64,000 nucleotides of DNA, from positions 2,385-66,384 of the IMG/VR virus record IMGVR_UViG_2698536598_000002. The stretch is one strand, 5' to 3'. This document shows positions 10-39,555 of this stretch, piece by piece (position 1 is the stretch's first letter; every line of letters begins with the position of its first letter). This stretch comes from a virus (taxonomy: Duplodnaviria; Caudoviricetes). A model generated the notes under the pieces. The model worked only from the letters and a program-made list of their open reading frames with translations. It ran no database searches and was not told the origin of the DNA. A program made the translations under genes and the position numbers.

Positions 10-228
10 TCACGACGTCTTCTCCTTGGTCGTGGGGGTCCAGCCCGGATAGTCGTTGGGGCAGGAGCAGGCGCCCGGGCAGGCGCAGGCCAGGTCCGCG
101 AACGCCTGGTCGGCGGGGTCGAGGAGGTGCCGCTGCTCGGCCGCCGCACCGTCGGCGAGACGGCTGGCGGTCAGACGCTCGACCAGCACGTGCAGGTCGA
201 CATCCAGGCGGTGGATCGGGAGCGTCAT
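10..228 (-). CDS. Small hypothetical phage protein with Cys cluster
   Basis: 72-aa ORF overlapping the antirepressor stop; CACPGACSC. Confidence 0.65.
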   Translation of the reverse strand: MTLPIHRLDVDLHVLVERLTASRLADGAAAEQRHLLDPADQAFADLACACPGACSCPNDYPGWTPTTKEKTS

Positions 229-1061
229 GACGCCTCCCCGAGCCTCTGCTGGGCGGGGTATCGGTCGGCGTAGAACTCGCCCCAGACCTTGTCGAACATC
301 GGCCGGTCCGCCTCGGTGTACGACTTCACAGCCCGCTCACGGCCGTCGACAAGACCGATCGAGTCCTTCGGCTTCTCGCCGTGCTGCATCTCGTAGGCCA
401 GCGAGATCCGCCGACCGAACGACGACCGCACCGAGCGGCGCTCGCCCTTAGTCAGGCCCGCGTCCTTCAGGTACGTCTCGACGAGCAGGGCCCGGTCCTC
501 GGGTGCGATCTCGGCGATCTCGCCAGCCGCCTCCGCGTAGTGGTGCAGCTGCCGGGAGCGCTTCCACCGCGGGTCGACGGTCTCGTCCATCGCAGCGATG
601 AGCTGGACCAGGCCGAGCGCGCGGCGGATGCGGCGCTCCTCGATCTGCTGCTGCAGGGCGTCCAACTGCTCATCGGTGGCGCGCTCGTTGATGGCGCCAC
701 CACGGGTCCAGTACGCCTCGATGGCGTCCGCGGTCTCGTCCTGGAAGGCGACGAGGATGGGACGGGCAGCAGCGCTGACGCGATTCTCGTCGATCGTTGC
801 GAGGAGCATCAGGAAGGTGCGGACCGGGACAATGTCCATCTCGCGGACCTTGCCGTCCTCGGCAACCGTTGCTTTCTGAGCAATGGTTGCCCAAGAGCGG
901 GACCGGAGCTTGCGGTACTGCGCCGGGTAGCTCAGCCCCAGCTCTTCGACCGCAGGGCGGATGATGACGTGCGGCTGGCCGTCGACCAGCGTGGTGTGGA
1001 TGGAGCCGGCCGACAGGTCGAGTTTCACGACCTCGCGCGACTCGGGTGACAATGGAGACAA
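225..1061 (-). CDS. Phage antirepressor (P22 Ant N-terminal-like domain)
   Basis: N-terminus DGQPHVIIRPAVEELGLSYPAQYRKL...WLATIDENRV-type pattern of P22_AR_N proteins. Confidence 0.8.
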   Translation of the reverse strand: MSPLSPESREVVKLDLSAGSIHTTLVDGQPHVIIRPAVEELGLSYPAQYRKLRSRSWATIAQKATVAEDGKVREMDIVPVRTFLMLLATIDENRVSAAARPILVAFQDETADAIEAYWTRGGAINERATDEQLDALQQQIEERRIRRALGLVQLIAAMDETVDPRWKRSRQLHHYAEAAGEIAEIAPEDRALLVETYLKDAGLTKGERRSVRSSFGRRISLAYEMQHGEKPKDSIGLVDGRERAVKSYTEADRPMFDKVWGEFYADRYPAQQRLGEAS

Positions 1062-13748: not shown

Positions 13749-14336
13749 TCAGGACCCGGTGTACGCAGCCGTCTCCGGCACCCGGTCGAAGTGATAGACC
13801 GTGTTGCCCGACGCGTCCGGGTAGGCGGTGATCGTCCACTCGAAGCCCGCGATCTCGTCCTGCTTGTGGGTGACGTCCGACCGCTCGGTGATCTCACCCT
13901 CGGGCACGTAGAAGCCCCTTTGGAAGGCGTCACCGTCGAGGACGACGAACCAGAACGCACGCCGGTCCGGCACCGGCGAAGCGGTCTCCGCGAACGACGT
14001 CAGACCCGACACCGGCGCCAGATCGGCGACATCGAGGCGGTACTGCAGCGACTGCACCGTCGTCCGGCCGACCTCCCACACCGTCAGCCCGAACGTCCGC
14101 AGGCTGGACGTGATCGTGGTGCGGATCGGCGCCGTGTACCCCCACGGCGTGAAGCTCTGGGTGTCCTCCTCGAAACCCTGCACGAGGCCGTCGTCGCTGA
14201 TCGCGCCCAGCGGCGCCCACGGCGACAGCGGCTGAACCTCCGGGTCGCCAGGCGAAGCCGTACCGAGCGGTGCCGTCCAGCCGGCACCATTCGCGCCGAC
14301 CTCCAGCAGGTCCGCTGCGCGGGTGATGTTGACCAT
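13749..14336 (-). CDS. Major tail (tube) protein
   Basis: W.PLGAISDDGL...FTPWG...RT.....TF.L.VWE pattern; position in the tail block. Confidence 0.9.
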   Translation of the reverse strand: MVNITRAADLLEVGANGAGWTAPLGTASPGDPEVQPLSPWAPLGAISDDGLVQGFEEDTQSFTPWGYTAPIRTTITSSLRTFGLTVWEVGRTTVQSLQYRLDVADLAPVSGLTSFAETASPVPDRRAFWFVVLDGDAFQRGFYVPEGEITERSDVTHKQDEIAGFEWTITAYPDASGNTVYHFDRVPETAAYTGS

Positions 14337-14411
14337 CATCGTCTCCAGACATGAGTGAAGCCCGCGCACGGGCGGGATCGGATCGGGGTCCGGCGCGGGC
14401 CCAAAACCCGG

Positions 14412-16279: not shown

Positions 16280-17311
16280 TCAGGCCAGCGCCTCCACGGC
16301 GGAACACCAGGCCGCCAGATCCGCGGCAGGATCGAGCTCCACCGAGCGGGCCTTCGCGCGCTTCGACGCCAGCCGGTACTCGGCTGCCGTCTTCAGCTTC
16401 CGCAGCACCGCCTCGTAGCCGGCTACGTCGTTGCGGTCCACGAAGATCCCGGCCTCGCCGAGCGACTCACACAACCCAGGTGTCGGGTGGGCGATGACGG
16501 GGATACCCGAGGCCAGTGCCTCGCAGCCCGCCCGGCCCCACGACTCGTAGGACGACGGCATCAACAGGACGCGGGTGCGGGCGTACACGCGCTCCCGCAT
16601 CTCCTCGCCGGGCACATGCTCGATGACCTCGACGTTCGGCAGGTCCGGAAGGATCTGCTCGCCGTAAGCGCCACGCACGGCGAGGAACTGCTGATCCGGC
16701 ATTCGACGAGCGAGAGCGTCGAGGACCTTGCCGCCCTTCTCGGGATTGCAGTTGACCAGCGTGACAGCCTTCCCGGGCTTCGTCGCATACTCGTCTGCGA
16801 ACACTGGCGGCCGGACGATCATCGACAACTCGGGCCGGATGGACTTCGGGTACTCGGCGAAGAACAGCTCCGCCTCCCGCTCCATCCACAGGCTGTTGTA
16901 CACCGCCAGCGACGTCCCACCGGCTGCCATATCCCGGAACGTCGGACGGTGCGTGTTGTGGCAGACCACCACCAGCTTCTTGCCGTAGCCGCGAGCCAAC
17001 GATGCCGTCGGAGGCACCGTCTCCAGATGGGCGAGCAGAACGTCTGCCCGCCGCACCGCAGACGGGAAGTCCAGCCGCGACTCCAGTGGAAGCACCCGGA
17101 CCCCGTGGTACTCGTACTCCTGGTGGGCCCTGCCATAACGGGACAGCCACACCGACACGTCGTGGCCGCGCTCCACCAGAGGACGCAGCATCGACACCAG
17201 CATGTGCTCTGCCCCTGCATTGTGCTCTGGCGGCATCGCATGGACCCGGGCGACGATCTTCAGGGGCTTGGCTGCCCCGCCCGGCGCGGAAGCCGGGACA
17301 GCCCTCGCCAT
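16280..17311 (-). CDS. Glycosyltransferase, GT-B fold (GT4-like)
   Basis: GAEHML...GHDVSV N-terminus; LMPSSYESWGRAGCEALASGIPVI with E-x7-E; start overlaps the capsid stop. Confidence 0.92.
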   Translation of the reverse strand: MARAVPASAPGGAAKPLKIVARVHAMPPEHNAGAEHMLVSMLRPLVERGHDVSVWLSRYGRAHQEYEYHGVRVLPLESRLDFPSAVRRADVLLAHLETVPPTASLARGYGKKLVVVCHNTHRPTFRDMAAGGTSLAVYNSLWMEREAELFFAEYPKSIRPELSMIVRPPVFADEYATKPGKAVTLVNCNPEKGGKVLDALARRMPDQQFLAVRGAYGEQILPDLPNVEVIEHVPGEEMRERVYARTRVLLMPSSYESWGRAGCEALASGIPVIAHPTPGLCESLGEAGIFVDRNDVAGYEAVLRKLKTAAEYRLASKRAKARSVELDPAADLAAWCSAVEALA

Positions 17312-18267
17312 CAGGACCCCGACGGGGTGCCGGTGTACTTGACGAACGCCTGCGCGTCGCCCTGCACGTAGCCGTAGAACGCCTCGGCGAGGATGAGCAC
17401 CAGGTTCTCCTGGAACGCCGAGTGGACGCCGCCGTCCTCGTCCACGTATGTCGCTTCCTTGCTGATCCGCACGGTGATGTCCATGCCCACGCCGTAGGCC
17501 GCCTGACTCCAGTCGCCGCCGATCGCGCGCAGACCCGTGTCCGACGACGCGGACTGACGGCGCTGCTTGCCCGACACCGACCGGGAGTACGCGAGCGGCT
17601 CGCCGATCAGCGTGCCGGCCGCCGCCATGTTGGTGCCCGGCGTCGTGGTGTCGACCAGGATCGGCCGGCCTGTGGTGTCGGTCGCGAGCAGCAGGGACGG
17701 CTTGAGGCGGTGGTCGGCGACGGTGCCGGTGTAGTCCCAGTCGTCGTCGATGACCTCGGCCATGCCGGTGACGAAGTCGGCCCAGATGCCGCCCTCTGCC
17801 TGTGTCGCAGTGCCCAGCGCCACCGAGTTGGTGGTCAGCGCCAGGTAGTCGGTGAACGGTCCGGCCGCGCCCTTCATGGTGAGGCCGTGGATCGCCGCGT
17901 GATCGAAGGCGCGGGCGAACGCGGTCGGCAGGTCCCGCTGAAGCTGGTCGTACAGGCCGCCTGCGTTGGTCATTGCGACCTCTTCGGCGACCGGGATGAG
18001 GACGGCGAGCTTCTTCGCCGTCATCTGCTTCACGCCAACGCTGGACGTGGACAGCGGCTTCTTGGCCGCCTGCCCGACCCAGTCGGCGGTCGGGACGTCC
18101 ATCGGGATCGGCACCGACGTCGTGGCATCGATCGCCAGCGGCGCCGGGCGGGCCAGCGCCATGACCGCGGACTGCTCGACCGACTTCTCGAAGATCGGGG
18201 CAGTGATGGTCCGCGGCAGGAGTGACGAGTTGACATCGGAGAGGGTGATCGGGGCCGTAGCCACCAT
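17311..18267 (-). CDS. Major capsid protein (HK97 fold)
   Basis: WVGQAAKKP...AKKLAVLIPVAEE...AFARAFDHAAIHG...SAFQENLV. Confidence 0.93.
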   Translation of the reverse strand: MVATAPITLSDVNSSLLPRTITAPIFEKSVEQSAVMALARPAPLAIDATTSVPIPMDVPTADWVGQAAKKPLSTSSVGVKQMTAKKLAVLIPVAEEVAMTNAGGLYDQLQRDLPTAFARAFDHAAIHGLTMKGAAGPFTDYLALTTNSVALGTATQAEGGIWADFVTGMAEVIDDDWDYTGTVADHRLKPSLLLATDTTGRPILVDTTTPGTNMAAAGTLIGEPLAYSRSVSGKQRRQSASSDTGLRAIGGDWSQAAYGVGMDITVRISKEATYVDEDGGVHSAFQENLVLILAEAFYGYVQGDAQAFVKYTGTPSGS

Positions 18268-19780: not shown

Positions 19781-21224
19781 CGACCTCCACCACATCCGGC
19801 AGAGACACAGCCGACCCTCCGTTCAGAGCAGCCAGACGGTCGAGCAACCGACCACCAGTCGAAGCCGCACCCGCCCGACGCCGATCCGCTCGAACCCGCT
19901 GCCGCTGCCCCTCAGACAGGCCAGCCATCTCCAACGTGACATCGGAGTCCGCAGGCAGGATCCCGGCCTGCACCAGCTTCACCGTGGCGTCCGCCTGCGC
20001 GGCCACCGTCGGCGTCGCCGGATTCCGCCACACCGTCTCGATACGGCGAGTCTTCTCCGGCGGCTCACCATCCCGCACCCACAGGGCGAGGCGCATGGCC
20101 TGCTGCCACGCCGCCCCATACCTGCGGATCCGCCGCTCCGACCGTTTCACCAGCTTGGCCTCGGTCGACCGGATGGCATCCGCACTGGCGGGGTTGTCGG
20201 TGGTGTAGCCGAGCATGTGCGGCGGCAGACCGAACTGGCTGGACATGATCCGCGCATACAGGTCGATGATCCGCGTCATCGCCGTCGGATCGTGCGCCGC
20301 GAACTGGCCGACCGTCGGCACCTGCCCATCCTCGTCGCGCTCCAGCGCGAGAACGCGGCCGATGTACGTCTCCCACGCCGACTTGGCGTTGCCCTCCGCA
20401 TCCTGGAAGGCGCTCTCGGAGGCGCCGAGGATGTACCGCTGCGGAGCACCGAAGAACTCGGCTGCCACCTCCATGCCCATCAGGCGCCGGCACGCTGCAT
20501 CCGTGATCGACATGACCTCAGGAGTGATCTCGCTCTTCCCGACGCGGTCCGCAGTCCGCTGCCGGTTCGCCATCCGCACCACTGGCACGACGCCAAGATT
20601 GTGGATGTCCCGGTCGACGACCTCCCAGCCGCCCGAAGACGCTGGCAGAGCCGTGATCGTCTGATCCGGCAGATACAGGACGATCATCCGCTCCTCAGGG
20701 CCCGACTCGACGAACCCGTCCGCCTGGCACTCCCGCAGAGCCGCCGTACCCATCCGCAGTCGGGCATCCCACATCAGGGTCATGTCCAGCGGCGACTCGG
20801 CTGAGATCAACGGCGGACAGTCGTCCGTCCCGCAATCCCCAGAGCCGACCGCCAGATACTCGCGGCCGTACACCAGGGAGTCCAAGTGGGCGAGGCTCGA
20901 CTCGTCGAACAGATCGTTGGCATCGGCGATCTCCGTCAGCTCCGACGAGTCAGATCCGTCCGCCCACCGGAACGCCTCCAAGTCGAGACGCTCCTCCAAG
21001 GACTCCACACCCACCCGCGGCCAGCCGATAACCGTATGCAGGCCCTTCAACTGCGGCGGAATGCTGATACCGAGGTCCCGGACCAACTGCTCGCCGTTGA
21101 AGTACGCGTCCCGCAGCAGCAACGCGTACCGATCACGCATCATGTCCGCACGAAGCAGATTGATCAACGCGAGCTCGTCTTCCGACAGATACACCAGCGG
21201 AAGATCCGGGATGGAGATGGTCAC
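19758..21224 (-). CDS. Portal protein (SPP1 gp6-like)
   Basis: WPRVGVESLEERL...G.SEIT...EFFGAPQRYILG...NPASADAI; GTG start overlaps the terminase stop. Confidence 0.92.
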   Translation of the reverse strand: MTISIPDLPLVYLSEDELALINLLRADMMRDRYALLLRDAYFNGEQLVRDLGISIPPQLKGLHTVIGWPRVGVESLEERLDLEAFRWADGSDSSELTEIADANDLFDESSLAHLDSLVYGREYLAVGSGDCGTDDCPPLISAESPLDMTLMWDARLRMGTAALRECQADGFVESGPEERMIVLYLPDQTITALPASSGGWEVVDRDIHNLGVVPVVRMANRQRTADRVGKSEITPEVMSITDAACRRLMGMEVAAEFFGAPQRYILGASESAFQDAEGNAKSAWETYIGRVLALERDEDGQVPTVGQFAAHDPTAMTRIIDLYARIMSSQFGLPPHMLGYTTDNPASADAIRSTEAKLVKRSERRIRRYGAAWQQAMRLALWVRDGEPPEKTRRIETVWRNPATPTVAAQADATVKLVQAGILPADSDVTLEMAGLSEGQRQRVRADRRRAGAASTGGRLLDRLAALNGGSAVSLPDVVEVDGGDDGL

Positions 21225-22942
21225 CGCAGCACCACCACCCGTCCCTTGCCGCGGCCCTTCGGCCTGTACTTGGAGTGGTTGAGGGCGCTGCGCCGCAGCA
21301 TCCGAGCGCCGATCATGCATACGGCGAGGTCGATCTTCCGTGCAGACTCGCGATGTTCCTTGCCGATGGTGATACCCCATCGGTTCGTTCGACGTCGGGC
21401 GTTGATCACATGCGTGCGCATGGCCCTGTTGCCGTCATGGACCAATGCGCGCTCCAGGATGTCCCTCCGGGTTCGCTTCGCTGCCTCGGTGAACTCTTCC
21501 TGGTGCCGGATGTTCCGCATGTCCCAGCGGATCGAGTGCTGCTTCGGGCCAGCAGCAACCGCCTTGATGAGCAACCCCTTGCCGTAGGTTCGGTGCCACC
21601 TGTCCAGATACGCGTCCCAGTACAGCTCGCCGTCCTCGTCCTCACCCGAGCCCGGGTCAGCGAAGAACGCCACGACCCTGTACGTCTCGAAGGCGAACGC
21701 GATCGCCCCGTCAACGTCTTCGCGAGGCACGCTCCACGGAACCTTCTCGTTCCAGTTGTGCGGCTTCTGCCACACTCCCAACGTGGTCACGAGCCCGTCG
21801 GACAGCCGACAAGCTGCGAGGCCCGTCGCATCGTCACTCTTGGAGCAGTCGAGGAAGATGACGATCTCGTCCCCTGCTTCGAGTGCAAGGCCTTCTCGCT
21901 GGCAGGCGTCCCACTCGTAGCGGGCCATCCATGCGTCCTCTGCCGCGACGATCTGGTTGTACCAGAAGCGCCTGCTGCGACTGGGCGGATTCCGCACGTC
22001 CAAGATCGAAGCTTTCAGCCGCTGGATGTCGAGCCATGTCGAGTCTCCGCGCACAGCTCGAAGAGTCGGCTCGATCCACTCCTCTGTCAGCTTCGCCTCC
22101 GGAGGGGCCTCCAACGAGTCGTAGAACAGGCCCGTGTCGACGACCCTGCCGGACTCCGCAGCCTCGTAGGCGTCGCGAGTCCGCTCGGCAACCGAGTCCT
22201 CGCCCGGTTCGAACGCATTTGTGTCCGCCAAGGTGCGCGACTGCCCGTCTGCGCTCTTCGTCGCGTTCCGCTCGATCACCGCGGCCATCTCGTGCCCCTG
22301 GTTGGACTCCAGCCAGTGGTGGGTCTCCCCCATCGAGGTGAATGTCGGTCGGCCGCCCTCGAGCGCCCGCGGCGACGACGTAACGGCCTCGATCCGCGCC
22401 CGGCCCTTGTCGGCGTAGATGATCTCCTTGCCGAGATCGATCCGGAACTCCTCCAGGGCCCGCTTCGTCAGGATGGACGGGAACAGCGTCATCGTGTTCC
22501 GCGTCTGATCCTGCGACACTGCGGCGATCTGCACCCACGCGGCCGGATGCTGCACGCCCAACGGCTGGCCGGCCGGGACGCCCCACTCGTTGCCCTCATC
22601 CGCGATCTCGCCGAACCTGCACGGCCCCACAAACTCAAAGGCGGCCCACGTTGCCTTCAGCGGATCCTTGCCGTGCCCCTTCAACCTTTGGATCACGCCG
22701 TCGCGCCACCGGAACCGGTTCGTCGCTGGATCCATGGCGTACCACCACAGCGTCAGCCGGGCTTGCTCGGCTGTGTACCGCCACGGCGACCCGACGTAAT
22801 GCTGCAGGTACGTAGCCGTCCACGCCAAGCACTGCCAGCCAAGCGTGTACTCCGGCAGGATGAACTTCCCGTCAGGGCCACGCTTCCAGGTGGGCCCCAG
22901 CGTGAAGGGCTCGACGACCGCGGGAACTTCCTCGTCATCCAC
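21221..22942 (-). CDS. terL: Terminase large subunit
   Basis: QRLKGHGKD Walker A variant, VQIAAVSQDQT, GETHHW, FLDCSKSDDAT, KIDLAV. Confidence 0.95.
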   Translation of the reverse strand: MDDEEVPAVVEPFTLGPTWKRGPDGKFILPEYTLGWQCLAWTATYLQHYVGSPWRYTAEQARLTLWWYAMDPATNRFRWRDGVIQRLKGHGKDPLKATWAAFEFVGPCRFGEIADEGNEWGVPAGQPLGVQHPAAWVQIAAVSQDQTRNTMTLFPSILTKRALEEFRIDLGKEIIYADKGRARIEAVTSSPRALEGGRPTFTSMGETHHWLESNQGHEMAAVIERNATKSADGQSRTLADTNAFEPGEDSVAERTRDAYEAAESGRVVDTGLFYDSLEAPPEAKLTEEWIEPTLRAVRGDSTWLDIQRLKASILDVRNPPSRSRRFWYNQIVAAEDAWMARYEWDACQREGLALEAGDEIVIFLDCSKSDDATGLAACRLSDGLVTTLGVWQKPHNWNEKVPWSVPREDVDGAIAFAFETYRVVAFFADPGSGEDEDGELYWDAYLDRWHRTYGKGLLIKAVAAGPKQHSIRWDMRNIRHQEEFTEAAKRTRRDILERALVHDGNRAMRTHVINARRRTNRWGITIGKEHRESARKIDLAVCMIGARMLRRSALNHSKYRPKGRGKGRVVVLR

Positions 22943-24333: not shown

Positions 24334-24627
24334 TCACCGGAGTCCGGGATGCGGCTCGGGCGGGCGTTTCCGTCCGGGCCGGGGGTCGGCGCGCTGTGCC
24401 TCGTTGCCCTCACGGCTGGATTTCTGCAGGTGGCATTCGGCGCACACGCCTTGAAGCCTGTCCTCGGCGTGGGCGTCGGTCTTGGCTTCGATGTGGTCGC
24501 AGTGGGTGGCGGGTCTGATCTGGCAGATTTGGCAGACCACGTCGCGGGCGAGCACCTTGCGGCGGATGGTCGCCCAGTTCGAGGGGAGCCGGCTCTTGCG
24601 GTCGGTGTCCTTCCAGCCGCCGCTCAC
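24334..24627 (-). CDS. Packaging-associated HNH endonuclease
   Basis: CQIC...CDHI...LQGVCAECHLQKS; upstream of terminase. Confidence 0.9.
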   Translation of the reverse strand: MSGGWKDTDRKSRLPSNWATIRRKVLARDVVCQICQIRPATHCDHIEAKTDAHAEDRLQGVCAECHLQKSSREGNEAQRADPRPGRKRPPEPHPGLR

Positions 24628-25395: not shown

Positions 25396-25574
25396 CAGTC
25401 GGCCACCGCCTCGTCGTTCTGGCGGACGATGCTGCGGACGTTGGCGGCTGGGATGTAGGCGGCTGCGGAGCCGTCTCCGACCCAGGCGATGTACTGGTTG
25501 CCAGAGGGTTCGAGGTTGGCGGCGGTCACGGTCTCTGACTCGCCGTCGAGGTAGCTGATCAGGTAGTGGGCCAT
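25395..25574 (-). CDS. Small hypothetical protein (59 aa, not in ORF track)
   Basis: Hand translation MAHYLISYLDGESETV...YIPAANVRSIVRQNDEAVAD*; GGAG RBS; stop overlaps the next start. Confidence 0.7.
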   Translation of the reverse strand: MAHYLISYLDGESETVTAANLEPSGNQYIAWVGDGSAAAYIPAANVRSIVRQNDEAVAD

Positions 25575-25972
25575 GGCGCGGGCTCCGGGAGGTCAGTCGT
25601 GGGTACGGCGAGCATGCCGCCGGTGATCTCGTACTGGTCAAGCTGGGAGAGCGTGTGAGTGAGGAGCGCTCGCAGTAGTGCCCGTTCGCGTCCGCTGTCG
25701 GGGATGCCGCCAGGCCCGTCGACGTAGCTGTACACCTCCCCGTCCGAGTGGGCGTAGAGCAGCGTGGTCGGCTTCTGCTTCAGCGTGGAGAGTTGCTTTT
25801 CCGCGTACTCGTTGAGGGTGCGCATCAGATCTTCGCCGTCGATCTTGTGGCAGAGGCTGCAGATGCGGACGGACGCGGACGCGTGGGCTGGCTTGTTGTG
25901 CTGCCAGGCGTGTTCGCAGAGGCTGTCGGCGGCCATCGGTTCGTTGACGGGCAGGCCGATGCTGGAAGCCAT
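25559..25972 (-). CDS. Hypothetical protein
   Basis: 137 aa; CxxC (CSLC). Confidence 0.6.
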   Translation of the reverse strand: MASSIGLPVNEPMAADSLCEHAWQHNKPAHASASVRICSLCHKIDGEDLMRTLNEYAEKQLSTLKQKPTTLLYAHSDGEVYSYVDGPGGIPDSGRERALLRALLTHTLSQLDQYEITGGMLAVPTTDLPEPAPWPTT

Positions 25973-25994
25973 GGGCGCGGGCCTTCCGTGGGGT

Positions 25995-26870
25995 TCAGGC
26001 GCCGAGCGACCGCCGCACGCCTTCTTCGAGCGTGATCGTGGGCACGTAGTGGTTGAGCATCCGGGACGGGTCGCTGACGCGGTGGTGGACGCCGCGCGGG
26101 GCGTCGGCCCGGTGCTTGAGGTGGGGCCGGTAGCCGGCGGCCGTGGTGACGATGCGGGCGAGGTCGTCGAAGCTGGTTGCTCTGCCCCAGCCGAGATTCA
26201 CCGGCCCGGTCACGTCGTTGTCGAGGAGCGCGAGGGTGGCGCCAACGAGGTCGGAGATGTGGATCCAGTCGCGAGTGGAGTTGCCGCTCCCCCAGATCTC
26301 AAAGGGGTCGTCGCGGCGTCGGGCGCGCTGAATGAACGCGGGGAACGGGTAGCAGTCCGTCTGGTCTTCGCCGTAGCCGGAGAACGGCCGCGGCACGAGG
26401 ATGCGGCAGCCTTCGGCTTCGGCGTAGGTGGCGAGCTTCTCCCCCGTCAGTTTCGCCCAGCCGTAGGTGGCGTCGGGTTCTTCCATGTACGAGAGGTTGA
26501 TGTCCTCTTCGTACAGGCGTCGCACGTCGCCGGGCTGCTGAAGCGCGACCGGGTAGGCGGCCGAGCTGGAGAAGTACACGGCGCGCGGGGTGCGGGTGCG
26601 GACCAGCCAGCGCATGTACCAGGCGTCGAGTGCGAGGTTGGTGGCGACGCCGAGCGGGCTGCCGTCGATGCTGGCCCGGCCGCCGACGATCGCCGCGCAG
26701 TGGATGGCGAGGCCGTATCCGGTGTCGTCTGTGCGGAAGAAGTCGAGGGCGTCTCCGCTGTCGTCGGCGAGGTCGATGCCGGTGACGTCGTCGCCCCGTG
26801 CTTCGAGCGCGGCGTGCAGGTGACGGCCTACGAAACCTCGGTGGCCACTGAGGAGGACTCGCACAGGCAC
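25995..26870 (-). CDS. NAD-dependent NDP-sugar epimerase/dehydratase (extended SDR)
   Basis: VLLSGHRGFVG nucleotide-binding motif, YFSSSAAY, YGWAK (YxxxK), WGSGNSTRDWIHISD. Confidence 0.93.
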   Translation of the reverse strand: MPVRVLLSGHRGFVGRHLHAALEARGDDVTGIDLADDSGDALDFFRTDDTGYGLAIHCAAIVGGRASIDGSPLGVATNLALDAWYMRWLVRTRTPRAVYFSSSAAYPVALQQPGDVRRLYEEDINLSYMEEPDATYGWAKLTGEKLATYAEAEGCRILVPRPFSGYGEDQTDCYPFPAFIQRARRRDDPFEIWGSGNSTRDWIHISDLVGATLALLDNDVTGPVNLGWGRATSFDDLARIVTTAAGYRPHLKHRADAPRGVHHRVSDPSRMLNHYVPTITLEEGVRRSLGA

Positions 26871-26881
26871 CTCCTGGCACG

Positions 26882-27100
26882 ATGTCGAGCATGGGGCACG
26901 AAGAAGAGCAGGTGAGCAGCTACCGGAACGGCGGCATCCTCAGCCCCGGTATGGCTTGCGGGCGGAACACTCACCCGTGGAAGACCGAGTTCATCGTGCC
27001 GCTGAAGCCGACACCCGAGCAGGTCGCCCACGTGGCCGCCGTGATGGCGTTCCAGTCGCAGATCGACCTGATCGACACGTCCTGGCTCGACGAGATCTGA
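26882..27100 (+). CDS. Possible small antisense ORF
   Basis: 72-aa ORF exactly filling the gap between the methyltransferase and epimerase genes. Confidence 0.4.
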   Translation: MSSMGHEEEQVSSYRNGGILSPGMACGRNTHPWKTEFIVPLKPTPEQVAHVAAVMAFQSQIDLIDTSWLDEI

Positions 27101-27112
27101 GCCTCGGAACCG

Positions 27113-27664
27113 TCACGCGCAGACCCACATGCCGAAGCAGTACGGGGACCAGGCGCCGCGCATATCGAGGATGCAGGTGACCTGCACCGTCCACCCCGCG
27201 GCCGTCAGCATCTGTTCGACGTCCGCCTGTGACCAGGCCCAGTAGTGCTCGATGTTGGCGTCGCCCCAGTTGTCGACCGGCGTGGTCAGTACGAGGCGCC
27301 GGGCCTTGGTCCGGATCAGCTTCAGCACCCGGTCGGGGTCGTCGAGGTGCTCGATGGACTCGGAGCAGACGTACAGGTCGACGTCGGGGATGACGTGGAT
27401 GGTGTCCTCGATGGCGCCCTGAATCGCGTATCCGGGGGCGTAGTCGCCGAGGATCGTCGTCTCGGCGCCGACCGCTTTGGCGATGGCGCCGTTGCCGCAG
27501 GAGAGGTCAGCGACGGAGGAGACGTTCTCGATGCCCTTGGCGAGGGCGATGGTGGTGTCGACGCGGACGTGGTGGTCACGCCAGCGCCGGTGGTCGTGCG
27601 GCTGCGGATAGATGTTCGCGAGCTGCTCGGCCGTGTGTGCGGGGCGAAGCCGCTGCCGGGTCAC
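27113..27664 (-). CDS. Class I SAM-dependent methyltransferase
   Basis: VADLSCGNG motif I; YVCSESIEHLDDP; VLTTP; GTG start overlaps the GT2 stop. Confidence 0.85.
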   Translation of the reverse strand: MTRQRLRPAHTAEQLANIYPQPHDHRRWRDHHVRVDTTIALAKGIENVSSVADLSCGNGAIAKAVGAETTILGDYAPGYAIQGAIEDTIHVIPDVDLYVCSESIEHLDDPDRVLKLIRTKARRLVLTTPVDNWGDANIEHYWAWSQADVEQMLTAAGWTVQVTCILDMRGAWSPYCFGMWVCA

Positions 27665-28362
27665 AGGAGCGCTCGCAGTTTGTCGAGGTCGGCTTCGAGT
27701 CCGCCGTTGTCCCGGTAGTCGTAGTAGGCGGCGGAGTCGCTGCTCACCTGATCGGCGCTGTTCGCTTCCTCGTAGCCCTGGTCGACCTGCGCCTTGCCGG
27801 CGGCCGGGTGGAGGTGCTCGATGACGACGTCGGGCAGGTAGGTGATGCGGCTCAGGCCGCGCCCCCAGTCCAGCCATACGAGGTCGAGGCACAGGTGGAC
27901 CAGGCTGGGCGGACTGAAGTAGCCGAGGGTCTGGACGATGTCGCTGGTCAGGGCGACGGCGGTGGGCATGTTCTCGCCCTGGAGGAGGTCGTTGCCGTAG
28001 ACGAGGCCGGGGCCGCCACCGGACAGGCATTCGCGGAATCGTTCGTCCCACGGTCGGTCTGCGGGCCGGGGTCGGTGATCGTCGCCCAGGAACGCGAGGA
28101 ACCGGTAGGAGTCGGCGTTCTTCACTGCTGCTTGGTTCAGGGTGCCGCAGAGCCGCTTGCGCGCCCAGAACACGAACCGCACCCGGCCGTCGTCGGCGAA
28201 CTCCTTGGCGTGCGCCTTGTACGCGGAGAGTTCGGGGTCGTCCTTGTCGACGCAGAACAGCACGTCCGCGGTCGCCCCGGTGTCGTCCCACGCCTGCATG
28301 ATCTCCGGCACAGCCTGAGGCCGGCCGCGGGTGGGGATGATGACGAGAAGGTCGTCGGCCAT
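27661..28362 (-). CDS. Glycosyltransferase, GT-A fold (GT2-like)
   Basis: VIIPTRGRP...CVDKDD...LAFLGDDH...VVIEHLHP. Confidence 0.88.
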   Translation of the reverse strand: MADDLLVIIPTRGRPQAVPEIMQAWDDTGATADVLFCVDKDDPELSAYKAHAKEFADDGRVRFVFWARKRLCGTLNQAAVKNADSYRFLAFLGDDHRPRPADRPWDERFRECLSGGGPGLVYGNDLLQGENMPTAVALTSDIVQTLGYFSPPSLVHLCLDLVWLDWGRGLSRITYLPDVVIEHLHPAAGKAQVDQGYEEANSADQVSSDSAAYYDYRDNGGLEADLDKLRALL

Positions 28363-28374
28363 GGCGCGGGCTCC

Positions 28375-28662
28375 TTACGTGACGGTGAGGATTCCGGCCC
28401 GGCGGACGACGGCTTCGGCTCCGGGCGGGTCGATGTGGATCCACACCCGGTAGTCGCCCGCGGTGAGGGCGAGGTCGGTGGCGGGGCCGATGAGGACGCG
28501 GGCGGAGGTGCCGTCCCAGCTGGCGGTGTGCCATTCGTCGTCGTCGGGGTTGGTGCGGTGTGCGACGGCGGCGATCTTGACGGGGGTGCCGGTGAGGCTG
28601 GTGCCGGCGGGTGTGGCGGTGACGGGGACGTGCAGGTATTCGGTGCTGCTGGCGGGGATCAC
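28375..28662 (-). CDS. Small Ig-like/BppU-like structural protein
   Basis: Beta-rich; LTAGDYRVWIHI; coupled to the upstream gene. Confidence 0.55.
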   Translation of the reverse strand: MIPASSTEYLHVPVTATPAGTSLTGTPVKIAAVAHRTNPDDDEWHTASWDGTSARVLIGPATDLALTAGDYRVWIHIDPPGAEAVVRRAGILTVT

Positions 28663-29654
28663 AGCCATGGTTCGCCGACCTCCCAAGCCAGGGCGGGCGG
28701 GCCGGTGGTGAAGCCGTAGTCGATGGCGCTGTCGGCGACGGTGGCCGTGCCGCTGGCGGTCAGGGTGGCTGTCGCTCGAGCAGAGCGCGTACCGACCGCG
28801 GCGAGCATGCTGTTGGCCGCGGCATTTGCCGACCCGGTGACCCACCGTGCGCCGGCCGCGGCGAGCGTGGTCTCGCCGTGCAGCTCAGTGCCGCCGCGGG
28901 CCCGCAGGATGCTGGCCGCCGCAGAGTCGCTGGTGGCGTCGAGGGCCGCGGTGGCGATTCTGCGGGCAGCGTTTGAGGCGGTTGCCGTCCCAACTGCGGT
29001 GAGGGCAGCCGAGCCTGTAGCGCGGAGTATGCCGACCGTGGCGAGGGCGCCGTCGGCGGCAAGGTCTGCGGCCCCGGTGACGGTGCTGAACAGCGGCGCG
29101 TTGACGGAGTCGACCTCAATGAAGTCGTCAACACCCGCGTCCCGGTGGCCTTCGATGAGGAAGGCGAGGTTGGTGTCCGCAGCCCACGCGGGGGTCGTAG
29201 CGGTACGCCGGTTGGTCCAGTCGATGCCGTCGGGGCTGGTGTCCCAGTACAGGGTGCCCGCGTCTTCGCGGAAGCGGAGCCAGGCGTGGTCGGTGGGCGA
29301 GTAGGTGAGGAAGACGGCGCCGCCGTCGGCGTAGCCCTCACGCAGGTAGAGGCCGACTGCGGTCTGCGCGGAGTCGACGATGAACCCGGCGTCGGTTCCG
29401 CCCGTCGAGGTGAGCACGAGGCAGCTGGCCGCGGTTGAGGTCGCCCCGTTGGGGGTCGGCGGGTGCAGCCGGATGGTGATTCCGGATCCGGTGAGCGTGT
29501 AGATGCTGCCGGACTTGAGGCCCGCGTACCCGGTGGTGCACGGGATGCGGGCCCGGCCGGCGGTCTCGTCGGGGTCTCCGTAACTGCCGGACCAGAGGCC
29601 GGTGTCGAGGCTGCCGTCCTCGAAGTCGTCGACGAGCTCGGCGAAGGTGGGCAC
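28659..29654 (-). CDS. Putative virion appendage: lectin-like N-terminal domain plus Ala/Thr/Ser-rich stalk
   Basis: DDFEDG..D..LW...WLRFRE..GTLYWDTSPDG..W; low-complexity A/T/S C-terminal half. Confidence 0.6.
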   Translation of the reverse strand: MPTFAELVDDFEDGSLDTGLWSGSYGDPDETAGRARIPCTTGYAGLKSGSIYTLTGSGITIRLHPPTPNGATSTAASCLVLTSTGGTDAGFIVDSAQTAVGLYLREGYADGGAVFLTYSPTDHAWLRFREDAGTLYWDTSPDGIDWTNRRTATTPAWAADTNLAFLIEGHRDAGVDDFIEVDSVNAPLFSTVTGAADLAADGALATVGILRATGSAALTAVGTATASNAARRIATAALDATSDSAAASILRARGGTELHGETTLAAAGARWVTGSANAAANSMLAAVGTRSARATATLTASGTATVADSAIDYGFTTGPPALAWEVGEPWL

Positions 29655-29664
29655 GACGGCTCAC

Positions 29665-30054
29665 CTAGCCGATCGACAGGTCGACGTCTCCTGCGGCCAG
29701 CTTCAGTTCATCGCCGGCCCCGAGCGTCTTGCTGGCGGTGAGCGGCCCGTGCCACAGCCGCACCGGGCTGCCGGCCGAGTCGTAGATCTCGACGCCGACG
29801 ACCGTGCACGCGGGCATGCCGGTGAACAGAATGTCGGCGTCGTTCGAGACTCCACTGCCGCCAGTAGACGAGGTGAGGGCGATGTTCTGGCGGGCGTAGG
29901 ACCCGCCGGTCACCTCGGTGCCGGCCGCCGAGTCGGAGCCGTTCGCGGTGACGAGTGCGGCCTTCAGCGGGGTGGTGGGCCGGGTGGGGGTGCCTACGCC
30001 GTGCAGCCAGTTGAGGAGCAGGCTCTCGGCAACGTCGGTCAGGTTGTCGGCGAT
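29665..30054 (-). CDS. Small phage fibre-like structural protein; apparent ATC start
   Basis: (I)ADNLTDVAE..LLNWL.G..TP..P..LKAAL.TA.G.D...GTEVTGGSYARQ...N.ADI.F..MPA; GGAGG 9 nt upstream of ATC. Confidence 0.65.
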   Translation of the reverse strand: MADNLTDVAESLLLNWLHGVGTPTRPTTPLKAALVTANGSDSAAGTEVTGGSYARQNIALTSSTGGSGVSNDADILFTGMPACTVVGVEIYDSAGSPVRLWHGPLTASKTLGAGDELKLAAGDVDLSIG

Positions 30055-30575: not shown

Positions 30576-30655
30576 CCAGACACAGCGAGATCGATTGGAG
30601 CACACCATACGCTCGGCCTGATCAACTGGCAAGTGGCGTTGCTGGAATGGCACGT

Positions 30656-31429
30656 CTAGCGAAGCGACGGCATTGCCGGGATGGTCCGCGCGAGCCAGTC
30701 GTCGGGCTTGGTGGTGAAGTGGGGTGCCTGGCTGGTCTCCCACCAGGAGCGGACGGCGGTAGTGCTCACGGTCTGGTCGGTGCGCCTGTCGACGTACTCG
30801 ACTGGCCGTTCCCCCACGTGCCGCACGGTGACGCGCCCGCGTTTGCAGCCAGCCGGATAGTCGTTCCAGTTGACGTCCGCCTCCGCGAAAAGAAGTTCCT
30901 GCATCTGGTCACCATTGAGGCCGTGGAGCCGTTTGTGCGGGAAGCGAGCCTGTGCCGCCATAGAGATCGAGTTACGGACGGCATCCCTCTGCCTCCACAG
31001 GAAGTAGTTGGCGACTTCGACGGGGCCACTGATCGTGAACACGCGGGAGTCGAACAGGGCACGCTTGCCAGGCCGGCGTTCGTTGATGACTGCGGTGGCG
31101 AGCGCGGCCGATATGGAGACCTGCTTGGCGACGACCCCGCCGAACCAGGGCTGTGTCTGGGTGGTGGCGAAGTCGGTGACGAGGACGCTGATCTCGTCGG
31201 ACTGCGTGTACGCGAAGACGGTGCCGGAGATCTCGGCGCAGACGGCTTCGGCGACGGCGTCCATGTCGGCCATGAAGGTCTCGTCGAACGGGCGCTGGGC
31301 GCCACGCAGATAGGTGTGGGCGGCCCGGATGTCGAGCCTGATCAGGCAGTACGTCCGGCGCGGGAGCACGGCTCGATGGACGGCCTCGTACTCCTTCATG
31401 CGGTCGCCCAGGCTGGTGCTGTCGGTCAC
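30656..31429 (-). CDS. Thg1-like tRNA(His) guanylyltransferase / 3'-5' RNA polymerase
   Basis: LGDRMKEYE, IRLD, YTQSDEIS, FDSRVF, YFLWRQRDAVRNSI. Confidence 0.92.
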   Translation of the reverse strand: MTDSTSLGDRMKEYEAVHRAVLPRRTYCLIRLDIRAAHTYLRGAQRPFDETFMADMDAVAEAVCAEISGTVFAYTQSDEISVLVTDFATTQTQPWFGGVVAKQVSISAALATAVINERRPGKRALFDSRVFTISGPVEVANYFLWRQRDAVRNSISMAAQARFPHKRLHGLNGDQMQELLFAEADVNWNDYPAGCKRGRVTVRHVGERPVEYVDRRTDQTVSTTAVRSWWETSQAPHFTTKPDDWLARTIPAMPSLR

Positions 31430-37551: not shown

Positions 37552-39555
37552 CTAGCGCAAAGCGGTCAGCGCTTCGATCTTGTAGCCGTTCGGGTTCTTC
37601 AATCCGTCAATGGCTCCGATGGGCACCGGCACGCCAACACCGACCTCCCTGAACAGCTTTCGCAGCTCGGCCACCGTGAGGTCGCCATAGGCTTCCGGAT
37701 CGAAGGCCGCGAGCGCCTCGGCGAGAGGCTCGGGGCGGATCCGCTCCACTCGGGCCGTGACCATGACCTCGATGGCGTCGACGACGACCTGCCGGTCCCC
37801 GGGGATCCGCTTCTGCTCTACTCCCTCGTCGGCGAGGTGCAGCAGCCCAGCAGCGGCGAGCGTGTCTCGGTCGAACCAAGGACGCCCAGCCGCGACGCGA
37901 TCAACGACGGCCTGCTTGATGCCGTGGTTGCCGTGCTCGTTCCACCCGTACAGCAGCGGCCGGTCGAGCCCCGGGCCCTTGATGTACGACTGGCCGGCGT
38001 CGTTCTTGATGTCCTTGTTCTGGGCGGGGACGAGCCGGTCGGGGCGGAAGCCCTTCGCGGCGGCGCCCTGGCCCAGGACGAGCCGGATATCGTCCCAGCG
38101 GGAGGCCAGCATGACTCGCAGGGTGAAGGTGTCGGCGATGGCGTCTCCCATCGCGTCGGACGTGGCGTCCTGGCCGGCCGCAATCACGTAGATGCCGGAC
38201 TGCTTGCCGATGCGCAGCAGCTCGATGAACAGCTCCTTCGCCCGCGGGCTGAGGAAGATGAACTCGTCGACGCACGCGAAGATTGCCGGGTGTTCCTTGG
38301 TGGCCACCCAGGTGTCGCCCATGCCGAGCCGGTTGCGGACGACGTTCCGCCCGCCCGCCATCTTGACCAGGTACTCAAGCCACTGCTCGCACGCCTTGTT
38401 GCCGCGGATCGGTGGGACGGCCGTGGCGCCTTCGAACTCGCGGAGCCCGTCCTTGATGGGGTCGAGGTCGAGGAGGATGGCGTTGTGGCAGGCGGTGATG
38501 ACCTCCGCGAGATCGCGCAGCACGCCGGTGGACTTGGCGGCACCGGAGACGCCGATGACGAGAATGCGCTGCCCTTCGAGCACCAGGTCGAGCGGCGAGC
38601 CGTCCATGCAGCGGCCAAAGTTGTGGCTGTGGGCGATGTCGAGGCTGTTCGGAGCGTGCACGGCAGGCTTGGCCATGTCGTCGAACGGGTTGCCGGTGAC
38701 GAGCCGGAGCACAAGGTGCGCGGACTCGGCCGGATCGGGGTCGATGAGGGTGCCGCCCTGCTTGATGTTGAAGTGTGCGTCCAGTTGGTCGCAGACCGCG
38801 TTCACCTTGCCGGGGGTGGAGCCCTTGAGGACGACATCGACCTCCCAGAACTTGCCACGGAAGCCGAGCGCCCGAATCTGCCGGACACCGACGCCTTCCC
38901 AGGCCAGCGCCCGGGACACGCAGTCCTCGACCATGCCCGGCGACGTGCACAGGGCGAGCGGGAACGGCTCGTCGGAGTTGGGGTCGTCCTGTTCGGCGAT
39001 CATCTGCTGGGGGGCGATGTCGGGCCGGTTGACTCGGTAACGGCCGTACAGGGTGACCACGGTTGCGGCGACCGCTGTGGTCAGGGACGGGGGGATCATC
39101 CAGGACCAGTCGAGGGCAGTCATGCCCGCGTACTTCACGAGCGCCCACCAGCCGGCCAGGTTCAGACCGGCAGTGATGCCCGCACCCCAGCCGAGAATCC
39201 TCCACCGCTTCTGGCGGACCTGCTGGTTCATGGACCAGTCGGACTTCTTCTGCATGCCGCCGATGACTTCCTGGAAGTCGTGGCTGCGCACGTACCGCCA
39301 GCCGAGGAAGCTGACGGCCCGCATACCGGCCGCGAACCAGGTGGCGGTGAGGCCCACGGCGCGGCCGGTCTTGGCAGCGGCGACCATGGCCGCCGAGCCG
39401 GTCTTCGACAGGACGGTCGGGTGCGGGGTGTAGGGGACGACAATGCCGGGCGCGATGTCCTCGCCGGACAAGTCGTCGGGCACATGCAGCTCGCCGGGGA
39501 TGACCTTCGACAGGTCCCAGTCGTTAGGGAACTCGGGGTGCTGGTCGAGGCTCAT
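37552..39555 (-). CDS. FtsK/SpoIIIE-type DNA translocase, Streptomyces TraB-like
   Basis: Two N-terminal TM segments; GVSGAAKST Walker A variant; FACVDEF Walker B; LLRIGKQSGIYVIAAGQ; C-terminal winged-helix-like tail. Confidence 0.85.
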   Translation of the reverse strand: MSLDQHPEFPNDWDLSKVIPGELHVPDDLSGEDIAPGIVVPYTPHPTVLSKTGSAAMVAAAKTGRAVGLTATWFAAGMRAVSFLGWRYVRSHDFQEVIGGMQKKSDWSMNQQVRQKRWRILGWGAGITAGLNLAGWWALVKYAGMTALDWSWMIPPSLTTAVAATVVTLYGRYRVNRPDIAPQQMIAEQDDPNSDEPFPLALCTSPGMVEDCVSRALAWEGVGVRQIRALGFRGKFWEVDVVLKGSTPGKVNAVCDQLDAHFNIKQGGTLIDPDPAESAHLVLRLVTGNPFDDMAKPAVHAPNSLDIAHSHNFGRCMDGSPLDLVLEGQRILVIGVSGAAKSTGVLRDLAEVITACHNAILLDLDPIKDGLREFEGATAVPPIRGNKACEQWLEYLVKMAGGRNVVRNRLGMGDTWVATKEHPAIFACVDEFIFLSPRAKELFIELLRIGKQSGIYVIAAGQDATSDAMGDAIADTFTLRVMLASRWDDIRLVLGQGAAAKGFRPDRLVPAQNKDIKNDAGQSYIKGPGLDRPLLYGWNEHGNHGIKQAVVDRVAAGRPWFDRDTLAAAGLLHLADEGVEQKRIPGDRQVVVDAIEVMVTARVERIRPEPLAEALAAFDPEAYGDLTVAELRKLFREVGVGVPVPIGAIDGLKNPNGYKIEALTALR

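Follow-up and report, generated by a model that had tools for sequence, protein, structure and literature searches.

What do three genes for sugar-active enzymes contribute to a tailed phage when they are placed between fibre-like structural genes and the DNA packaging genes? This question is raised by positions 25995 to 28362 of the window, i.e., the whole stretch of 64,000 nucleotides analysed here, which corresponds to bases 2385-66384 of the 66,384-base IMG/VR record IMGVR_UViG_2698536598_000002 (CheckV rating 100% complete). The three genes encode a GT-A-type glycosyltransferase (hereafter GT), a class-I S-adenosylmethionine (SAM)-dependent methyltransferase (hereafter MT-A) and an extended short-chain dehydrogenase/reductase (SDR) of the nucleoside diphosphate (NDP)-sugar epimerase/reductase family. 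According to passages of PMC11600133 and PMC12363180, the mycobacteriophages Che8, Corndog and Myrna attach glycans to the proteins of capsid and tail tube with glycosyltransferases of their own, and in the initial annotation of the window the three genes were proposed to build, together with a GT4 glycosyltransferase linked to the capsid gene, a methylated glycan on the virion. Based on the observed family-level gene identities, their conservation, their co-occurrence and the common C-terminal tails of two structural proteins, it is suggested here that the three genes act on a virion glycan and that, within a system for virion O-glycosylation, they constitute an optional cassette for glycan tailoring, a reading to which we assign a probability of roughly 0.6. 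The earlier proposal hence stands as the best-supported reading, carried by the constant presence of GT4 next to the capsid gene, the serine-ended tails, the co-occurrence of GT and SDR and the methyltransferase slot between them, with the acceptor and the sugar being its conditional parts.

The capsid-linked glycosyltransferase and the terminal serine tails

The GT4 enzyme, i.e., a retaining glycosyltransferase of the GT-B type, scored above the cut-off of three Pfam families, namely PF13692 (47 versus 27 bits), PF00534 (44.4 versus 26.4 bits) and PF20706 (33.7 versus 26 bits). Its conservation was followed in 80 IMG/VR relatives of the capsid, the best out of 221, which share 83-94% capsid identity and form one lineage. 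In 80/80 of these loci, the gene immediately behind that of the capsid encodes GT4 (66-96% identity, median 86%, two copies being cut by contig ends), a count that does not represent independent events, as all 80 loci belong to the one lineage. An in-frame GT4 start overlaps the capsid stop in 77/80 relatives, whereby the start nearest to the capsid stop was taken, which biases this number upward.

Next to this coupling, the C-termini of two structural proteins were found to be alike. Among the 79 called genes, only the capsid and the tail-tube products end in GS, while ten products end in S. In the 80 relatives, the capsid ends in GS in 61 cases, with S as the last residue in 68, T in 8 and A in 4, and complete tail-tube proteins end in GS in 58/64 and in S in 64/64 cases, the preceding residues being variable. 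Four capsid homologues whose gene is followed by a head-tail adaptor gene and not by GT4 have I, D, D and P as last residues, hence none of them S. They share a ...AFVK(Y/F/I)(T/V) core, except for Gordonia Vine with ...AFVLYR, after which the proteins either stop or continue into acidic or other tails. In three more distant lineages among the GT-bearing records, both proteins likewise end in serine: in G018, which possesses two GT4 paralogues, the capsid ends in ...HQS and the tail protein in ...YTGS, the respective ends being ...GSASS and ...TVTTS in G025 and ...DFSS and ...DLLS in G027. This evidence supports a role of GT4 at the terminal serine, as far as can be judged from sequence, but not directly a role of the cassette.

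Two further arrangements were noticed at the capsid gene. In the GT-bearing G016, G018 and G020, a head-tail adaptor-like gene is flanked by two GT4 paralogues, whose identity to the GT4 of the window is 57-59% and 48% (e.g., L123:3639-6185), and in the distant relative G025 the capsid and GT4 genes are separated by an inserted gene for a 416-amino-acid, Cys-rich protein whose C-terminal part is HNH-like (L121:7388-8638).

The tracking of the serine tails with GT4 leaves room for another acceptor of the three enzymes, namely accessory fibre proteins whose genes immediately precede GT, i.e., a 331-amino-acid, Ala/Thr/Ser-rich protein and a 97-amino-acid, Ig-like protein, which would then be glycosylated in place of the capsid and the tail tube. 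The fibre-like genes abut the cassette, the 97-amino-acid gene precedes GT in 13/21 related cassettes, and Ser, Thr and Ala are abundant in the larger protein. Yet a homologue of the 331-amino-acid protein was found in only 8/21 GT loci and one of the neighbouring 82-amino-acid protein in only 5/21, and none of the three proteins ends in Ser, so that this acceptor is considered improbable.

The cassette among related phages

The three genes were surveyed in 21 IMG/VR loci with GT relatives of 30-94% identity. An SDR gene is located downstream of GT in 20/21 of them, L025 being the exception. Searching 15 related records as a whole revealed both GT and SDR in four and neither of the two in 11, whereby 8 of the latter 11 are rated at least 90% complete. 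GT4 is present in 11/13 GT-bearing records and, when only those rated at least 90% complete are regarded, in 8/8. The slot between GT and SDR accommodates a methyltransferase gene in 14/21 cassettes, which is of the MT-A type in three (L006, L007 and, at 28%, the distant L026) and of another type, MT-B, in 11. MT-B is a different class-I methyltransferase, which scored above the cut-off for Methyltransf_25/11/23 and for which BLASTP identified no similarity to MT-A (E=0.38). In the 7/21 slots without a methyltransferase, a 12-bp gap, a gene for a DUF3307 membrane protein, one for a Cys-rich protein, a second GT-A gene together with an HNH gene, or other open reading frames (ORFs) were found. 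As the methyltransferase slot has been kept through non-homologous replacement, and as fusions of GT with a Methyltransf_23 domain exist (3 among 10 long GT forms scanned), methylation appears to be tied to the GT/SDR pair.

Relatives devoid of GT and SDR carry at the same place, upstream of the HNH and terminase genes, either MT-B, a third methyltransferase-like gene, DUF3307 or a 227-amino-acid GT-A enzyme (L078, L041, L022), the latter being homologous to Corndog gp37 / Che8 gp109 (29% identity, 5e-17 and 2e-13). The third methyltransferase-like gene encodes 180 amino acids with a DVGPGEGTY motif (L069:133-675, L086:56-598). In some relatives, the GT-SDR slot also contains a gene for a 164-amino-acid HNH-type endonuclease and, in L006, additionally a small opposite-strand, excisionase-like helix-turn-helix ORF (L006:3814-4585; L022:8776-9279), which suggests that this slot serves as a landing site for mobile genes.

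Taken together, a nested pattern is obtained, in which GT4 always accompanies the capsid gene, GT and SDR are paired and occur only in GT4 phages, and a methyltransferase usually resides between the two. Based on this pattern, a core GT4 initiator acting on a terminal-serine tag, complemented by an optional cassette, was suggested. For the pathway that would result we infer acceptor, order of steps, sugar and timing as follows. GT4 would be translated together with the capsid protein and start the glycan on the C-terminal serine tail that is common to capsid and tail-tube subunits. From a nucleotide sugar of the host, SDR would produce an altered donor, which may be a deoxy or an epimerised hexose, and GT would add the sugar thus made to the growing glycan, where MT-A would finally O-methylate it. 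The cytoplasm is the expected site of all these steps, and the phase of late gene expression their expected time.

An accessory, swappable cassette in a lineage consisting mostly of proviruses, i.e., of temperate phages, may also be read as a lysogenic conversion module, in which the soluble GT, fed by SDR, would modify a host wall glycopolymer in the cytoplasm and thereby block superinfection in a TarP-like manner. Lipid-linked precursors of the wall can serve as substrates of soluble GT-A enzymes, and the occurrence of the DUF3307 membrane protein in the slot of some relatives would fit such a function. The placement of the cassette inside a co-oriented run of late and structural genes, with no flanking terminator found and with the single promoter match located far upstream, argues against it. 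Moreover, the cassette is strictly nested in GT4-bearing phages (8/8 complete records), a homologue of Che8 gp109 occupies the same spot in relatives, and the record lacks an integrase, which together render lysogenic conversion unlikely and leave the tailoring of a virion glycan as the preferred reading.

Enzyme families and gene layout

All three enzymes were confirmed to be encoded on the minus strand at the positions given in the initial annotation. The assignment of GT to family GT2 claimed more than the matches allow. The label glycosyltransferase is backed by the match to phrog_14945, but GT itself matched no family in Pfam or NCBIfam, and only 7/50 of its homologues matched Pfam Glycos_transf_2 (PF00535), the best with 2.3e-5. 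Across the alignment of these 50 homologues, R14, D94-D95, D125, H156, D160, Y175, H185 and D194 are invariant. When the profile of the GT family was compared with the Protein Data Bank (PDB), the best match was the GT2 enzyme 9jma, weak at E=0.035 and aligned over the IIPT..RP and DDD motifs, and the sequences of GT and MT-A gave nothing meaningful against PDB sequences. GT-A-like and distant from GT2 is therefore a fair label, which takes the fold as predicted from motifs and weak profile matches. The family is large, with 2122 representative clusters retrieved at a threshold of E<=0.001 and 1950 proteins at one of E<=1e-5, and many copies reside on Streptomyces chromosomes. In the ESM Atlas, where the family is dominated by viruses, only generic 'glycosyltransferase' clusters were hit.

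Among isolated phages, GT finds its closest homologues in Streptomyces phages of ~130 kb (41-45% identity among the matches listed), and 63/71 matched records are Streptomyces phages. In these large phages the homologues are located among DNA-metabolism genes, and GT matches the N-terminal part of phrog_2675, which bears the label 'DNA methyltransferase', both of which would be in line with DNA hypermodification, i.e., with GT placing a sugar on a modified base of the phage DNA in order to evade restriction. The phrog_2675 label, however, probably originates from a fused methyltransferase domain. In the 66-kb record, neither a thymidylate-synthase-like hydroxymethylase (PF00303) nor TGT/DpdA (PF01702) was found in searches that covered these two routes and whose controls were positive, and the cassette has structural and packaging genes as its neighbours. 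Hypermodification of DNA is accordingly regarded as very unlikely.

MT-A is translationally coupled to GT, as stated in the initial annotation, whereby the overlap is seen at the GTGA junction. It possesses a motif-I-like DLSCGNG and matched Methyltransf_23 with 4.3e-5 and 23.7 bits, which is below the gathering cut-off of 27 bits. Its homologues in actinomycetes amount to 477, many of them with PF13489 on record, and by tblastn no match was found in phages. With the model match and the glycine-rich motif I, MT-A has the features of a class I SAM-dependent methyltransferase, for which sugar O-methylation is a putative function. Within the 242-bp gap that follows MT-A resides a plus-strand ORF of 72 amino acids with strong coding signal, and in L008 an ORF 55% identical to it has the same place and orientation.

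SDR is a clear member of PF01370 (108.5 bits, cut-off 20.9) and possesses the GxxGxxG motif and the Ser/Tyr/Lys triad with YxxxK. The nearest solved structures are those of guanosine diphosphate (GDP)-L-fucose synthase (7ll6, 7e-19), GDP-mannose 3,5-epimerase and uridine diphosphate-glucuronate decarboxylase. GDP-L-fucose synthase (7ll6, 1bws) and GDP-mannose 3,5-epimerase (2c5e) are like SDR in the GxxGxxG motif, in the Ser...YxxxK arrangement and in being alignable over near-full length. When SDR is aligned to 7ll6, however, the SSCIYP of the latter corresponds to SSAAYP and its aligned His to Tyr, with Tyr-x3-Lys being kept. The Cys and His at these positions of GDP-fucose synthase are what we take to be the acid/base pair of epimerisation, and they are replaced by Ala and Tyr in SDR. 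A function as GDP-L-fucose synthase was considered and rejected on account of these two positions and of a score far below the cut-off of the GDP-fucose synthase NCBIfam equivalog NF047922 (81.5 bits, cut-off 500). With the presumed acid/base Cys and His reading Ala and Tyr, a 3,5-epimerase/reductase reaction by the GDP-fucose-synthase mechanism is unlikely, and it is as likely that SDR is a 4-ketoreductase or a 4-epimerase. The whole record contains this one SDR and no nucleotidyltransferase for sugar nucleotides, and the phage therefore probably tailors a host sugar nucleotide in a single step and does not synthesise one from scratch. The earlier designation of SDR as an epimerase by which the phage makes its own nucleotide sugar was thus too strong.

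In phages, SDR has cyanophage-type relatives only, at no more than 28.5% identity, and its resemblance to MoeE5 of moenomycin biosynthesis (1.8e-13) brings to mind the tailoring of a small molecule, whereby the enzymes would glycosylate and methylate a metabolite of the host or of a competitor, e.g., an antibiotic, during infection. Streptomyces metabolism is indeed rich in NDP-deoxysugar pathways. Antibiotic glycosyltransferases, on the other hand, are typically of the GT1 type, the GT family is virus-dominated in the ESM Atlas, and the strict association of the cassette with GT4 and the capsid gene would be left unexplained, so that this function has hardly any likelihood.

The GC content of the window is ~68%, and nearly all genes were assigned to the minus strand by third-position GC. 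Read along this strand, the late region starts behind a Thg1-like gene with a 742-bp gap, which is followed by the genes for the 82-, 331- and 97-amino-acid proteins and then by GT, MT-A and SDR. Downstream of SDR come three small genes, HNH, large terminase, portal, protease, scaffold, major capsid, GT4, major tail protein and tape measure (Table 1). The location between fibre-like and packaging genes given in the initial annotation was thereby confirmed, with a Gp80-like gene and its two neighbours upstream and with HNH and the large terminase downstream. Its wording 'head of the late operon' holds for the co-orientation of the three genes, but a seamless operon is interrupted by the plus-strand ORF, and the head position rests on the 742-bp gap with its one promoter-like match. 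The cassette is tightly spaced with the structural genes of the co-oriented late run, and a search for terminators flanking it returned none. As had been annotated, no transmembrane segment is present in the three enzymes, none of whose 19-residue stretches reaches a mean hydropathy of 1.6, and no membrane protein was predicted at ~13-39 kb, i.e., within ~10 kb of the cassette. For the 97-amino-acid protein, clusters bearing BppU_N and LtfC are among the neighbours in the ESM Atlas and are to be taken as leads only.

Table 1. Features of the window discussed in the text, in order of position (PHROG, Pfam and other matches with E-values)
Feature	Coordinates	Strand	Length	Match or remark
Major tail (tube) protein	13749..14369	-		phrog_117 2e-38; C-terminus ...AAYTGS
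GT4 glycosyltransferase	16280..17311	-	343 aa	phrog_26352 2e-154; ATG and the capsid TGA have base 17311 in common (TGATG)
Major capsid protein	17311..18267	-		phrog_10 and PF05065; C-terminus ...KYTGTPSGS
Large terminase subunit	21221..22942	-		phrog_9 1e-70
HNH endonuclease	24334..24627	-		Pfam HNH 0.0034; ahead of the terminase genes; kept downstream of SDR in relatives
SDR, extended-SDR NDP-sugar epimerase/reductase-family enzyme	25995..26870	-	291 aa	PF01370 4.5e-31
ORF in the MT-A/SDR gap	26882..27100	+	72 aa	third-position GC 0.90; no family match
MT-A, class-I SAM methyltransferase	27113..27664	-	183 aa	GTG start overlaps the GT TGA stop by 4 bases
GT, GT-A-type glycosyltransferase	27661..28362	-	233 aa	phrog_14945 'glycosyltransferase' 8e-49; DxD-like D94-D95
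Ig-like protein	28375..28668	-	97 aa	immediately upstream of GT
Fibre-like protein	28659..29654	-	331 aa	phrog_14065 1.3e-48 (positions 465-772 of 1152); C-terminal half Ala/Thr/Ser-rich
Fibre/head-fibre-like protein	29665..29913	-	82 aa	Pfam PF23140 Gp80 8.4e-13; phrog_240 1e-10
Sigma-70-like promoter match	30604..30632	-		single, weak, in the 742-bp gap; 1 found versus 0.4 expected in shuffles

The majority of the related IMG/VR records are classed as proviruses, and searches of the whole record for tyrosine and serine integrases (PF00589, PF07508) identified none. As close GT homologues of 76-87% identity are located on large Streptomyces chromosomal contigs, the host is suggested to be a Streptomyces. 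A near-identity search of positions 25500-29700 gave no match among isolated phages, and for the capsid the best isolated phage reached 36.8%, i.e., no close isolated relative is visible, whereby records near the window may be hidden from such searches. The sequencing runs listed for the window comprised soil metagenomes with small shares and no RNA run. Elsewhere in the window, the Thg1-like 3'-5' nucleotidyltransferase gene (30656-31429, minus strand; phrog_4717 5e-70, Pfam Thg1 2e-18) is located just upstream of the late region, followed further upstream by an FtsK/SpoIIIE-like gene (37552-39555; phrog_12531 3.5e-66). The early region encodes a DNA methyltransferase of 501 amino acids (60369-61874, minus strand; phrog_116 1.8e-60), which bears no relation to the sugar cassette. 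Past the end that carries the tail and lysis genes resides a gene encoding a P22 antirepressor N-terminal domain (225-1052, minus strand; PF10547 6e-28), and ARAGORN found no tRNA genes in the window.

Weight of the reading and comparison with known systems

Several findings weigh against the three genes acting on a virion glycan. Besides the upward bias of the overlap count and the common lineage of the 80 GT4 loci, the serine tails track GT4 and not the cassette, and therefore establish no link between the three genes and the capsid. Missing from 11/15 related records, the cassette is an accessory, moron-like element, and most relatives are proviruses. The cassette is, moreover, split by the plus-strand ORF between MT-A and SDR. 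The closest homologues of GT in isolated phages (~43%) sit among DNA-metabolism genes beside a nucleotidyltransferase. Finally, GT, MT-A, SDR and GT4 gave no match at E<=0.01 when compared by BLASTP with Che8 gp108-110 and Corndog gp35-38, and hhalign of the GT family with gp108, gp109, gp110 and Corndog gp36 reached 30% probability at best.

From the findings as a whole a wider picture can be drawn, which is put forward tentatively and with clearly less confidence than the function of the cassette. The C-terminal Ser tail, most often ...GS, may be a portable glycosylation tag of capsid and tail-tube proteins in unrelated actinobacteriophages, whose reader in Streptomyces prophages would be a GT4 that is coupled to the capsid gene and has no relationship to the enzymes of the mycobacteriophages. 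The place ahead of the terminase genes may be a swap site at which GT-A enzymes and SDRs as well as methyltransferases of at least three unrelated kinds are exchanged, thereby giving each phage a virion glycan 'serotype' of its own. As soil phages never meet antibodies, the purpose of such a coat would be other than immune shielding, e.g., protection against proteases, host surface traps or defence systems.

To our knowledge, glycosylation of the phage virion was demonstrated only for a few mycobacteriophages, for which it was interpreted as an immune shield. If the suggested function holds true, virion glycosylation as known from these phages would be joined by a different enzyme set, namely a capsid-coupled GT4 together with a swappable cassette of GT-A, SDR and methyltransferase. 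The trait would then be widespread in soil actinophages, considering the 2122 clusters of the GT family and its many Streptomyces chromosomal copies, and its purpose would be broader than the evasion of antibodies. The common terminal ...GS tail would represent a simple predictor of acceptor sites and possibly a handle for the engineering of phage glycan coats. The initial annotation knew of no such system characterised for Streptomyces phages; in line with this, a search at the level of titles and abstract starts revealed no literature on virion glycosylation in Streptomyces phages, but Freeman et al. 2023 (Cell Host Microbe 31:1216) reportedly mention putative glycosyltransferases in these phages, which qualifies the earlier statement.

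Outside the mycobacteriophages, three systems resemble parts of the window. In TurkishDelight (NC_073473), gp20, annotated 'glycosyltransferase', is a GT4 encoded between the capsid and major tail genes, like the GT4 of the window, and each of its halves matches the latter (39% and 36%). The capsid of this phage ends in ...GSTS and its tail protein in ...CVAS. Other than in the window, the enzyme is a tandem double GT4 of 678 amino acids, encoded in an unrelated 94-kb genome and known from annotation alone, and the annotation of the 36 kb examined lists no cassette of GT-A, methyltransferase or SDR. A sugar-nucleotide enzyme accompanies the GT homologue of the ~130-kb Streptomyces phages (e.g., Blueeyedbeauty gp76-78), as SDR accompanies GT in the window, but there the partner is of the cytidylyl/adenylyl-transferase type and not an SDR, and the genes are located among those for DNA replication and nucleotide metabolism. 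TarP of S. aureus, finally, a prophage enzyme that glycosylates wall teichoic acid and which we take to be a soluble GT-A enzyme from a temperate phage like GT, presumably acts on the host envelope and does so without a capsid-coupled GT4, a methyltransferase or an SDR.

The closest parallel is provided by Che8 (gp108-110) and Corndog (gp35-38), whose virion O-glycosylation was reportedly described by Freeman et al. 2023 and is taken up in passages of PMC11600133, PMC12363180, PMC12619734 and PMC13313380. In the mycobacteriophages named at the outset, glycans are described to be located at the C-terminal ends of capsid and tail-tube proteins alike in passages of PMC12619734, and for Corndog gp41 is named as capsid and gp49 as major tail subunit in a passage of PMC4351075. 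Translation of the respective genes revealed that the Che8 capsid ends in ...NKTGS and its tail protein in ...YSDGS, the Corndog ends being ...LVGS and ...KGDS. Capsid and tail tube of Che8 thus both end in ...GS, as do the proteins of the window, the ending being taken as a sequence proxy for C-terminal O-glycans. As in the window, with MT-A as the putative counterpart, glycosyltransferases and an O-methyltransferase are encoded in the late/structural region of Che8 and Corndog, and Che8 gp108-110 reside just before gp111, an HNH gene and the genome end with its terminase, hence at the same relative position as the cassette. The window phage differs in that it has as its conserved core a GT-B/GT4 enzyme whose gene is coupled to that of the capsid, in that its set includes an SDR sugar-nucleotide enzyme, in its Streptomyces host and in being known from genes alone. 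The resemblance to Che8 and Corndog is therefore one of logic, of position and of acceptor tails and not one of enzyme families.

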